Assembly (NCBI GenBank): GCA_964535825.1
Contig: CAZHUC010000004.1
Location: 97,065 to 161,064, forward strand
Source of the DNA: an uncultured Rickettsiales bacterium
GTDB lineage: Bacteria > Pseudomonadota > Alphaproteobacteria > Rickettsiales > SXRF01
DNA: 64,000 bases
Reading direction: 5' to 3'
The notes beneath the pieces were generated by a model. The model was given only the letters and a program-made list of their open reading frames with translations, did not search any database and was not told where the DNA came from. How positions within the stretch are numbered: position 1 is the stretch's first letter; each line of letters opens with the position of its first letter. The position numbers and the translations under genes are program-made. This document shows positions 33,313-59,326 of this stretch, one piece after another.

Positions 33313-34080
33313 TTAGTAATCTACTTTGAGTAGATAAAGACCATCAGGGGGAGCAGTAGGGCCTGATTTGGTACGATCGCAGGCTTCAAGCGCTGCTTTA
33401 ACATCTTCCGGCAACCACTTGCCTTTACCCGCCAAGGCGACTGTGCCTACCATGATGCGCACCTGATGATGCAGGAACGAGCGCGCACAGGTTTGCACAA
33501 TTATATCATCACCCTGTTTGGTGATATCCAGCTTCTCCAATGTTTTGATAGGTGACTTTGCCTGACAGGCTGTGTCGCGGAAGCTGTTGAAGTCATGTGT
33601 GCCGACAAGATAGCTCGCGGCCTGCTGCATCTTCGGAATATCCAGATATTCTGCCACATGCCATGCACGGCTGGTCTCCAGTCCCAGACGAGCGCGACGG
33701 TTGATGATGCGGTAAATATAATGCCTGCGGATGGCAGAAAAGCGTGCGCTGAAATCATCGGGCACTGCTTCCACATGGGTAACGGCAATGCGTTCAGACC
33801 GGATGGATGAGTCATTATCCGAGGCATGGAATAAATGAAAATTGATGCCCTGCATGATATTGAACTCATCATATTCCTTAGGCAGGTCTACGTGCGCGAT
33901 CTGGGCGATGGCATGTACGCCGGCATCCGTGCGGCCAGCGCCAACAATATCTGTAGTAATGCCAGCGAATTTTTTTACAGCCTCGATAAGTTTTTGCTGC
34001 ACGGTTGGCTGATCGGGCTGTCTCTGCCAGCCGGCATAGTGCGTGCCATCATATTCAATGGTTAGTTTGTAACGCGGCAT
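33313..34080 (-). CDS. truA: tRNA pseudouridine(38-40) synthase
   Basis: GAGRTDAGVHA catalytic motif. Confidence 0.97.
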   Translation of the reverse strand: MPRYKLTIEYDGTHYAGWQRQPDQPTVQQKLIEAVKKFAGITTDIVGAGRTDAGVHAIAQIAHVDLPKEYDEFNIMQGINFHLFHASDNDSSIRSERIAVTHVEAVPDDFSARFSAIRRHYIYRIINRRARLGLETSRAWHVAEYLDIPKMQQAASYLVGTHDFNSFRDTACQAKSPIKTLEKLDITKQGDDIIVQTCARSFLHHQVRIMVGTVALAGKGKWLPEDVKAALEACDRTKSGPTAPPDGLYLLKVDY

Positions 34081-56999: not shown

Positions 57000-58112
57000 T
57001 TAAGAAAATTGTTTATGCACCACCACACCGTCTTTGCACAGCATTGTTCCAGTAATTAACTCATCATCCCATTTTACATTCAAGCCTTCTTTACTGAGCA
57101 TCAATGTGGAGATGAAATTATACAGGTTGCGCGCATAAAGCTGGCTGGCATCGGCTGCCACGCGGCTTGGCATATTGCTATAGCCGATCAGCACAACGCC
57201 GTAACGTTCTATCACCTTATCCAGTTCTGCGAGTGGGCAGTTACCACCTGCGGCAACCGCAAGGTCAACGATGACCGATCCTTGCTTCATGCCCTTCACC
57301 ATATCCTCGGTGATAAGGACTGGCGCTGGCTTCCCAGGGATCAGCGCGGTGGTGATGACGATATCATGCTTGATGATGGTATCGTGGATCAGCTGGGCTT
57401 GTTTGCGCTTGTAATCCTCGCTCATTTCCTTGGCATAACCGCCGGATGCTTCACCGCTTTCTTCCGCGGGTACTTCCACGAATTTCGCGCCAAGGCTTTC
57501 TACCTGTTCTTTAACTGCAGGTCGAACGTCGAACGCGGAAACAACTGCTCCCAGTCGTTTTGCAGTAGCGATGGCCTGAAGGCCGGCAACGCCAGCACCA
57601 AGAACCAGTGCTTTTGCAGGGGCGACCGTACCTGCCGCCGTCATCATCATCGGCACGGCTTTGCCAAGCATGGAAACAGCATCGATCACGGCACGATAAC
57701 CGGCAAGATTACTTTGCGATGAAAGCACGTCCATGGATTGTGCACGGCTGATGCGTGGCAGGAGTTCCAGGCTAAAGGCAGATATTTTTTTACTATTATA
57801 CATATCAAAGGCTTCACGGCCGCCATATGGCTCTAACATGCCGATAAGCAACGCACCTTCTTTGCATTCTGATACTATATCCTTTGCCGGTGGGCGGACG
57901 GTAAGCACAATATCCGCACCATGTGTCGGATCTGCTTCAAAGGTTGCACCAGCTGCCTGATAAGCGTCTTCAGTGAAGGATGAGCCCACGCCAGCGCCAG
58001 CCGTCACGGATACACTCGCGCCAAGGGCGACATATTTTTTTACGCAGTCCGGTGTTGCGGCAACTCTAAGTTCACCAGAAATATTTTCTTTGAGTACAGC
58101 AATTTTAACCAT
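57000..58112 (-). CDS. pntAA: NAD(P) transhydrogenase subunit alpha part 1 (NAD-binding)
   Basis: RISRAQSMDVLSSQSNLAGY, GAGVAGLQA and TALIPGKPAP motifs. Confidence 0.96.
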   Translation of the reverse strand: MVKIAVLKENISGELRVAATPDCVKKYVALGASVSVTAGAGVGSSFTEDAYQAAGATFEADPTHGADIVLTVRPPAKDIVSECKEGALLIGMLEPYGGREAFDMYNSKKISAFSLELLPRISRAQSMDVLSSQSNLAGYRAVIDAVSMLGKAVPMMMTAAGTVAPAKALVLGAGVAGLQAIATAKRLGAVVSAFDVRPAVKEQVESLGAKFVEVPAEESGEASGGYAKEMSEDYKRKQAQLIHDTIIKHDIVITTALIPGKPAPVLITEDMVKGMKQGSVIVDLAVAAGGNCPLAELDKVIERYGVVLIGYSNMPSRVAADASQLYARNLYNFISTLMLSKEGLNVKWDDELITGTMLCKDGVVVHKQFS

Positions 58113-58204
58113 GCTTCCCCTGTAGGAAATCGTGTGATTGAAGAGTCAGGTGTAACGGATTTTTACCCGAGGTGCAAAGAAGAAAATGCTAAAATTAGTG
58201 CAAG

Positions 58205-58753
58205 TTATCCGAGGCCGAGCGACATGTCCTGACCAGTGCCAACGGCAGGCGGCGAGAAACTGCCAAGTTCAGCACGGGAGATCGGAATGAAATCATAATC
58301 CGGGAAATTGGATGGATTCACCATGCCGCCCATATTTGCGGTGTTATAATCGGAAAAACCACCACCGCCAAAATCACCGCCACCACTGCCTGAGCCGCTG
58401 GCATCACCGCCAGCACCGCTGGTGTGATCGGTGATCTCACGGTTCTTGATGAAAATACTGTGTAATAGTTTTGCAATGAAGCCGCCTTGGGCATCGGGCA
58501 TGAGGCTAGGCATGATCATTTTGCCGGCAAGCCCCTCAGAGTCACCGCCCATGGCTTTCTGCAAGCCAACTTCGCCCACGTTATTAAGGTTGAGAGGAAC
58601 GCCAGTCAGCTTTGCAACTGTGTAGGTCTGTTTGCCGGAGTTATCAAATACGGCATCCATGGTGCTTTTTTCATTCGTGCCATCGCTTGCGGCATCTTGT
58701 TTGCCACGGCCGAAGCCCATATTATTGAGTTGTTGGAATATATTGTCTGACAT
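58205..58753 (-). CDS. Hypothetical Gly/Ser/Asn-rich protein with ISRAELG...MSLGLG tail (182 aa)
   Basis: Own promoter with -10 TATAAT 6 nt before the ATG; no signal peptide or TM segment; tail like 18456-18740. Confidence 0.75.
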   Translation of the reverse strand: MSDNIFQQLNNMGFGRGKQDAASDGTNEKSTMDAVFDNSGKQTYTVAKLTGVPLNLNNVGEVGLQKAMGGDSEGLAGKMIMPSLMPDAQGGFIAKLLHSIFIKNREITDHTSGAGGDASGSGSGGGDFGGGGFSDYNTANMGGMVNPSNFPDYDFIPISRAELGSFSPPAVGTGQDMSLGLG

Positions 58754-58759
58754 GCGGTT

Positions 58760-58804
58760 ATTATAGCGCTTAAACGTCTAAAGTTAAATGATATTATTGT
58801 GACA
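58760..58804 (-). promoter_or_regulatory. Direct-repeat box TGTCACAATAATATCAT plus 22-nt spacer plus -10 TATAAT (leaderless promoter)
   Basis: Box 58804-58788, -10 58765-58760, ATG 58753. Confidence 0.7.
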
Positions 58805-58820
58805 ATATTGGCTATATTCT

Positions 58821-58900
58821 CGTCATACCGGCGAAGGCCGGTATCCATTGCTTTCTTTACCAGATCCCCGGAACTCTCTACCACTCGTCCGGGGATGACG
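58821..58900. repeat. REP-like double-hairpin element (CGTCAT...ATGACG)
   Basis: CGTCATACCGGCGAAGGCCGGTATCCA ... GATCCCCGG...CCGGGGATGACG; same scaffold as 52881-52954. Confidence 0.75.
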
Positions 58901-58933
58901 GGAATCTAAGCGGCAAGCTGCTAAGATTTGCCG

Positions 58934-59326
58934 TCAATTTGGGCGTTTTAGCTGATCCGGGCTATCCAGTGAGAATGCCGGGATCACAACATTAAAACTC
59001 TCTCCGTCCATCGTGGTCATTTCATAATGACCTTTCATGATGCCAGAAGGGGTATGCAGCGCTGCGCCGCTGGTATACTGGTAAACATCACCGGGCTGGA
59101 GTACGGGCTGTTCACCCACCACACCTTCTCCATGTACTTCCTGTACTGAACCGGCAGCATCGGTGATGTGCCAGTAGCGGTTGATAAGCTGTACGGTCTC
59201 TTGCCCCATATTCTCCAACTGGATGGTGTATGCCCATACATACTGATGATCCAGTGGTTCTGACTGATCCCTTAGGAATGCAGGTGTGACCATGACCTTG
59301 ATAAGACGTGTGGTCTGCACATACAT
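58934..59326 (-). CDS. apaG: ApaG (Co2+/Mg2+ efflux-associated, DUF525)
   Basis: RYWHITD..G..QEVHGEGVVGEQP motif. Confidence 0.95.
   Translation of the reverse strand: MYVQTTRLIKVMVTPAFLRDQSEPLDHQYVWAYTIQLENMGQETVQLINRYWHITDAAGSVQEVHGEGVVGEQPVLQPGDVYQYTSGAALHTPSGIMKGHYEMTTMDGESFNVVIPAFSLDSPDQLKRPN

Follow-up and report, generated by a model that had tools for sequence, protein, structure and literature searches.

The analysed window, i.e., the whole stretch of 64,000 nucleotides, corresponds to positions C4:97065-161064 of a 1.92-Mb genome of an uncultured Rickettsiales bacterium, which consists of 12 contigs and has a GC content of about 50%. Genes were called with our own codon-usage-scored heuristic, which gave 1,813 genes with 91% of the DNA coding; some of the predicted start codons are off. 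The locus under study includes the gene of a 182-aa protein on the minus strand. In relatives this gene is usually located directly after apaG.

The 182-aa gene is preceded by a 17-nt box that consists of TGTCAC (58804-58799), AATAA (58798-58794), and TATCAT (58793-58788, a weaker variant of the half-site). The box is followed by 22 nt (58787-58766), TATAAT (58765-58760), six nucleotides aaccgc, and the ATG at 58753. An earlier reading of the same DNA from its letters alone (below, the sequence-only reading) had described exactly this geometry, and we read it directly as well. The window has no second copy of the exact 17-mer. The box scores 21.2 bits on a matrix derived from the genome's own copies. 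The features of the locus and the other boxes of the window are listed in Table 1.

Table 1. Features of the 182-aa gene locus and related boxes in the window
Feature	Position	Strand	Basis or remark
182-aa protein gene, family-restricted, product predicted to be mostly disordered	58205..58753	-	ORF
ATG start codon, inferred transcription start (leaderless mRNA), 6 nt after the -10	58751..58753	-	sequence
-10 element TATAAT, 22 nt after the box	58760..58765	-	sequence and sigma-70 scan
-35-like TTAACT, abuts the box, 16 nt before the -10	58782..58787	-	sigma-70 consensus scan, 10/12 positions
Pho-box-type direct repeat, half-sites 11 bp apart	58788..58804	-	about -51 to -35 from the inferred start
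G+C-rich hairpin ATACCGGCGAAGGCCGGTAT, between apaG and the box	58825..58844	-	stem-loop scan; listed on the + strand, complement on the - strand
Box TGTCATAAAATGTTCAC, before the 239-aa cassette gene	14541..14557	-	19.4 bits; 22 nt, then TAAACT
Box TGTCACAAAACTTTCAC, before the first gene of the glycine-zipper cassette	15698..15714	-	25.0 bits; 22 nt, then TAAGAT

The first five letters (TTAAC) of the -35-like hexamer are conserved in two related genomes (G001 and G002). No Shine-Dalgarno sequence fits into the aaccgc stretch between the -10 element and the ATG at 58753. The gap between the -10 element and the ATG is 6 nt in four species of the genus (it is kept in G001, G002, and G003) and 8 nt in G004. 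The genomes G016, G011, and G008 have leaders of 17-26 nt with Shine-Dalgarno-like GGGG or GAGG. The short gap, the conservation of the N-terminus from the ATG onwards, and five other promoters of the regulon described below with the same gap of 6-8 nt between the -10 element and the start codon suggest that within its genus the 182-aa gene is likely to be transcribed as a leaderless mRNA.

The hairpin lies 3' of the apaG stop codon at 58934 (minus strand) and has no U tail; it is likely to mark the end of the apaG transcription unit. Inverted repeats of the GTCATCCCGG type were observed in the apaG-proximal intergenic part (window positions 58845-58933, minus strand). They occupy the same place in several genera (upstream regions L002, L006, and L007) and look REP-like or terminator-like. 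On the other side of the 182-aa gene, no terminator or stable hairpin was found in the 92-nt gap before pntAA (window positions 57000-58204, minus strand). Therefore the promoter with the box may also provide read-through into the transhydrogenase genes pntAA-pntAB-pntB.

The search for homologues of the 182-aa protein gave 16 sequences with 38-100% identity. The protein was detected in 13 of the 25 family genomes and nowhere outside the family. No Pfam domain matched it. The sequence-only reading had stated that the product has no signal peptide; inspection by eye likewise revealed neither a signal peptide nor a membrane segment. Conserved among the homologues are the N-terminal MSD..NIF, a DGTNEK motif, and the helix GGFLAKLLHSIFIKNREITDHT (approximately residues 90-111), which is followed by a Gly-rich stretch. 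An AlphaFold2 model built with the 16 homologues has a mean pLDDT of 49.6 and a pTM of 0.14 and includes a single longer helix, residues 90-111. According to the model, the protein is predicted to be largely disordered.

The tail of a 94-aa orphan encoded at window positions 18456-18740 (minus strand), ...ISRADLG...GQGAGMSLG, resembles the tail of the 182-aa protein, ...ISRAELG...GTGQDMSLGLG. The idea of a common C-terminal tail was rejected because the BLASTP E-value is 0.12, which is not significant. A six-frame scan with regular expressions for the tail retrieved only the 182-aa protein, one of the patterns being unable to match the 94-aa tail. The 94-aa orphan has the -10 element TAGAAT 6 nt before its ATG, TTGGCA 17 nt upstream of that, and no box.

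The representation of the box was studied in the whole genome. A loose regular expression gave about a dozen intergenic copies that look like classical Pho boxes, e.g., TGTCATATAACTGTCAT and TGTCAATAAACTGTCAT, and the matrix was built from these copies. At a threshold of 14 bits, 60 of the 77 sites are intergenic, compared with 9.4% of intergenic DNA in the genome (binomial p = 1.8e-46). The profile of the 60 intergenic sites is TGTCAY-AAAAc-TKTCAY, a direct repeat with an 11-bp period. The flanks outside these 17 bp carry almost no information; thus the box has the appearance of a binding site and not of a copied cassette. The boxes are oriented with respect to genes: of the 76 intergenic sites with 13 bits or more, 59 are followed within 300 nt by a gene in the same orientation, and 36 sites have a co-oriented target only, compared with 8 that have an anti-oriented target only (p = 2.5e-5).

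The same matrix scan of the window returned three strong intergenic boxes and no others. All of them are co-oriented with the gene that follows, and none precedes a housekeeping gene. In this respect the scan agrees with the sequence-only reading, which had noticed the three copies before orphan genes. A match TTGCACAATTATATCAT at 33493-33509 is the nearest to the 17-mer by letters; it lies inside truA and was discarded as a chance match. The claim that the box marks a dispersed regulon is supported too, as the box is common to unlinked genes and most of its strong sites are intergenic.

The box is not restricted to this genome. All 41 sampled family genomes contain 6-37 copies of it with no more than one mismatch, and the control with the reversed pattern gave 0-2 copies. 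Under the same condition a genome of family f13 of the same order (G088) has 62 copies, which is three times the count in the genome studied here; G088 may thus be the most suitable genome for delineating the regulon.

In E. coli the Pho box replaces the -35 element and is located about 10 bp upstream of the -10 element. The box at 58788-58804 does not follow this rule: its gap is 22 nt, and the -35-like TTAACT lies in between. The distances between the box and the pattern TAnnnT in the 76 sites have three peaks, namely 10 nt (10 sites), 21-23 nt (27 sites), and 33 nt (8 sites), and at most other spacings the background is about 0-5 of the 76 sites. A spacing of exactly 22 nt is found at 15 of the 76 sites. 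With a threshold of 12 bits, we obtained 12 promoters with a 10-nt gap, 32 with 21-23 nt, and 18 with about 33 nt. Hence the 22-nt geometry, which the sequence-only reading had regarded as shared by three promoters, does recur and is the commonest class among the box promoters. The spacings of 10, 22, and 33 nt correspond to a periodicity of one helical turn, as expected for an activator that acts from one face of the DNA.

The orthologous promoters of the 182-aa gene in G001, G003, and G016 have kept the box (18.5-20.2 bits), exactly 22 nt, and a TAnnnT -10 element. In particular, G016, which belongs to a different genus, has the perfect repeat TGTCAT-AGAAA-TGTCAT. The box in the orthologous promoter of G008 is weak (8.7 bits), and in G002, G004, and G011 the same promoter survey found the box lost. 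The loss of the box from orthologous promoters, which the sequence-only reading had named as evidence against its proposal, is therefore seen in a part of the relatives: G000, G001, G003, and G016 have kept it, one genome has a weak box, and three have lost it. Since two genera retain the site and three genomes lack it, the site is ancestral and under selection, with turnover. Taken with its genome-wide behaviour, the box is very probably an activator site, and the 182-aa gene very probably belongs to the regulon that it defines.

Of 1,808 genes, 90 are preceded by a box in the same orientation that scores 12 bits or more and lies no further than 200 nt upstream; the targets at 12-14 bits include housekeeping genes, which are possibly false positives. 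The regulon includes approximately 60-90 promoters, not three. The distance between the box and the start codon peaks at 50-60 nt. As the sequence-only reading had suggested from its three copies, the targets are mostly orphans: 26 of the 32 top-scoring distinct targets have no Pfam domain, compared with 2 of 10 random genes without the box (Fisher p = 8e-4). Many of the targets are glycine-rich membrane-hairpin proteins similar to those of the cassette in the window. Among the targets that are annotated or could be recognised there are no phosphatase, phosphonate, or Pst functions.

The top targets include the TrbC/VirB2 pilin and the VirB4 ATPase, both with the canonical 10-nt geometry. Their genes head one contiguous cluster that comprises virB2, virB4, virB6, virB8, virB9, virB10, virB11, and virD4 together with two pseudopilin-like genes. 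The box also precedes the genes of an SLT lytic transglycosylase (VirB1-like), of an ankyrin-repeat protein, and of a second TrbL/VirB6 paralogue. The virB2 box TGTCAAAAAAYTGTCAC, together with the 10 nt and the -10 element after it, is kept in three congeners, and the box with its 10-nt spacing is also found in another genus, where VirB2 is only 37% identical; judging from this comparison, the virB2 box is old.

The two pseudopilin-like genes (C3:158959-160542, minus strand) have N-terminal methylation motifs and are located between virB11 and virD4. [quoted passage not shown] Another observation concerns ctrA (C10:42895-43614, minus strand), which has a weak box TGTAAAGAAATTGTAAT (13.9 bits) 108 nt upstream; this could be a chance match or hint at a connection with cell-cycle control. 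A basic secretion signal at the C-terminus was considered as a common feature of the targets and dropped, as no difference from other proteins was found in net charge over the C-terminal 20 or 30 residues (p = 0.62 and 0.33, respectively).

We then consider which protein binds the box. The genome encodes five Trans_reg_C proteins: PhoB, CtrA, a CopR/ChvI-like regulator, an OmpR-like regulator, and one atypical protein. The single PhoB (C8:22863-23591) matches TIGR02154 with 333 bits against a cut-off of 296 bits. The best matches of its DNA-binding domain are the E. coli PhoB structures 1QQI, 1GXP, and 3T72. Its recognition helix RTVDVHVRRLRK differs from the E. coli helix RTVDVHIRRLRK (1GXP, 3T72) in a single substitution of V for I (RTVDVHvRRLRK), and in the other four OmpR-type regulators several recognition-helix positions are different. 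We also scanned 71 genomes of the order and regarded those with 10 or more copies of the box as box-rich; the counts are bimodal. Box-rich genomes make up 19 of the 46 PhoB-positive genomes and none of the 25 PhoB-negative ones (Fisher p = 5e-5, not corrected for phylogeny).

The genes of the phosphate system are present in the genome: phoB, a gene of a PhoR-like kinase (310 bits) adjoining pstC and pstA, pstS, and phoU. No box was found upstream of phoB, phoR, pstC, pstS, or phoU, where the best score is below 3 bits. Nor does any of 30 PstS-like genes across the order (loci L018-L047) have a strong box, the best score being 9.8 bits. Because the phosphate-uptake and regulatory genes lack the box, this is not a classical Pho regulon. 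The result for the pst genes neither supports nor excludes PhoB; the identification of PhoB consequently derives from the motif, the recognition helix, and the co-occurrence. Since phoB itself has no upstream box, the usual autoregulation of PhoB seems to be absent.

Two details of these genes were observed in addition. The only PstS-like gene of the genome (C3:111251-112285, minus strand) has no separate promoter region; it overlaps an RND-efflux outer-membrane gene at the end of the latter. A 17-bit box is located at C8:23631-23647 (plus strand), 40 nt after the phoB stop codon and before a 171-aa orphan.

The box could instead be bound by another OmpR-family regulator, so that the regulon would have no relation to PhoB or phosphate. 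The candidates are the CopR/ChvI-like protein at C8:60302 and the OmpR-like protein at C8:27026, each with an adjacent kinase. That five Trans_reg_C proteins are available, that the OmpR family in general uses tandem repeats with an 11-bp period, and that no pst or pho gene has the box in this genome or at the 30 PstS-like loci of the order would be natural if such a regulator were responsible. However, the E. coli PhoB recognition helix is found only in PhoB, the box sequence is that of the E. coli Pho box, the remaining regulators differ from this helix at several positions, and all box-rich genomes are PhoB-positive. We consider this alternative improbable. PhoB is probably the regulator of the box. 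As to the signal, the presence of a PhoR-like kinase, PstC/A, PstS, and PhoU makes phosphate limitation about an even bet.

The size of the regulon bears directly on the proposal of the sequence-only reading, in which the 182-aa protein and the glycine-zipper cassette (12842-15641) are parts of one small dedicated inducible system, the protein acting for example as soluble cargo or effector. The two loci do have the box and the 22-nt spacing in common, and the cassette protein accompanies the 182-aa protein in all genomes that have the latter. But the box precedes about 90 genes, T4SS genes included, and with approximately 60-90 promoters in the regulon a common box says only that two genes belong to the same large regulon. 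Moreover, the loci are 43 kb apart, each with its own conserved neighbourhood, and the cassette is present in eight family genomes without a detectable 182-aa homologue. Phylogenetic co-occurrence, which had been suggested as a check, turned out to be nested: the 353-aa cassette protein is found in 21 of 25 family genomes, and the 13 genomes with the 182-aa protein are all among these 21. This nesting is nonetheless uninformative, since both genes are family-restricted and one of them is short and fast-evolving. No credible Pfam match was obtained for the four cassette proteins, with two sub-threshold matches on the 353-aa protein. No observation links the two loci specifically; the dedicated system is not supported and appears very improbable. 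A third reading, which takes the box for a sigma-54-type -24/-12 variant (TGGCAC-N5-TTGCA versus TGTCAC-N5-TTTCA) or for a passively spread promoter cassette instead of an activator site, is hardly credible and was rejected: the spacing and the flanking letters are superficially like the consensus and rpoN is present, but T occupies the invariant GG and GC positions in 56/60 and 58/60 sites, the canonical TGGCAC-N5-TTGC is present separately at eight other sites, -10 hexamers of the sigma-70 type follow the box in phase, and the uninformative flanks contradict copying of a cassette.

The reading that we prefer is that of a PhoB-type activator site in a large regulon of T4SS genes and orphans, with a leaderless 182-aa gene as one of its members; we assign it a probability of about 0.6. 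Under this reading the 17-bp box would be bound by a response regulator of the OmpR/PhoB family, most likely the single PhoB, as a dimer lying head-to-tail on two half-sites of the TGTCA type that are one DNA turn apart. Placed just upstream of the weak -35 element TTAACT, the dimer would recruit sigma-70 RNA polymerase to the TATAAT located 22 nt downstream. The activator would be placed immediately upstream of sigma region 4, presumably at a distance one turn greater than in the complex of E. coli PhoB with sigma4. With 22 nt to the -10 element instead of the canonical 10, the contacts of PhoB with sigma region 4 could not be exactly those of 3T72. The first transcribed nucleotide would be the A of the ATG or one adjacent to it, which would give a leaderless mRNA for a small, presumably disordered protein. 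The regulon would use three helically phased promoter geometries, with the -10 element 10, 22, or 33 nt after the box, and would cover VirB/D4 type IV secretion genes and mostly lineage-specific orphans in place of phosphate-transport genes. That the 182-aa protein is itself a secreted substrate we regard as unlikely.

The E. coli PHO box consists of two 7-nt CTGTCAT units with a 4-nt spacer, i.e., of two 11-nt direct repeats (PMC4415409). The box described here resembles it in the direct repeats with an 11-bp period, in the (C)TGTCAY core, and in the A-rich 4-nt spacer. The PhoB orthologue and its recognition helix are likewise those of the PhoB regulon of Proteobacteria (E. coli pstS, phoA), and a subset of the promoters, including those of virB2 and virB4, has the canonical 10-nt gap of E. 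coli Pho promoters. Two differences concern the position and the targets. Most sites, 58788-58804 included, are situated one DNA turn further upstream (22 nt) than the E. coli Pho box. Unlike in the Pho regulon, phoB, phoR-pstCA, pstS, and phoU have no box, and the approximately 60-90 promoters in the 1.9-Mb genome belong mainly to orphans and T4SS genes.

PmrA is an OmpR-family regulator of Legionella and Coxiella whose site, a tandem repeat of the TTAAT type, marks Icm/Dot effector genes at a fixed distance from the -10 element. The PmrA site has served as a feature for finding effectors, and translocation of the targets has been shown experimentally. The logic of the regulon described here appears to be most similar to that of the PmrA regulon (for background see PMC6989116, PMC2701608), as judged by analogy. 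In both cases one tandem-repeat site with fixed spacing precedes secretion-linked genes and many genes of unrecognisable proteins. The sequence of the site and the regulator are different, the regulator here being probably PhoB, and translocation is only a prediction for our targets. The machines are also different: PmrA is associated with the type IVB Dot/Icm system of intracellular gammaproteobacteria, and the system here is VirB/D4.

Metagenome-assembled genomes of basal, apparently free-living Rickettsiales (Mitibacteraceae, Athabascaceae) have been described as having a T4SS without recognisable effectors; these papers (PMC9352585, PMC11077975) make no mention of PhoB, Pho boxes, or promoters. 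The present genome is similar to them in having uncultured relatives labelled as Rickettsiales, a size of about 2 Mb, a GC content above that of classical Rickettsiales, a P-type T4SS, and the lack of recognisable effectors. It differs in that its T4SS genes form one contiguous virB2-to-virD4 cluster. In the literature we found no paper that links Pho boxes to T4SS or to orphan regulons in these lineages.

The box is conserved across the whole family and is present in at least ten sister families. A broader scenario, for which we have limited confidence, is that in this family and several of the sister families, which are Rickettsiales-affiliated and apparently free-living, PhoB has been rewired from phosphate transport to a programme of approximately 60-90 promoters. 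The programme would combine the VirB/D4 machine with glycine-zipper membrane hairpins, the ankyrin protein, and the disordered 182-aa protein. Phosphate starvation would then trigger contact-dependent secretion, and the box would label the unrecognised substrates of the T4SS. This would be a PhoB regulon uncoupled from phosphate uptake. With respect to annotation, about 90 hypothetical genes per genome would become one co-regulated set. As the box heads secretion genes together with about 80 orphans, it would give a testable list of candidate T4SS substrates.
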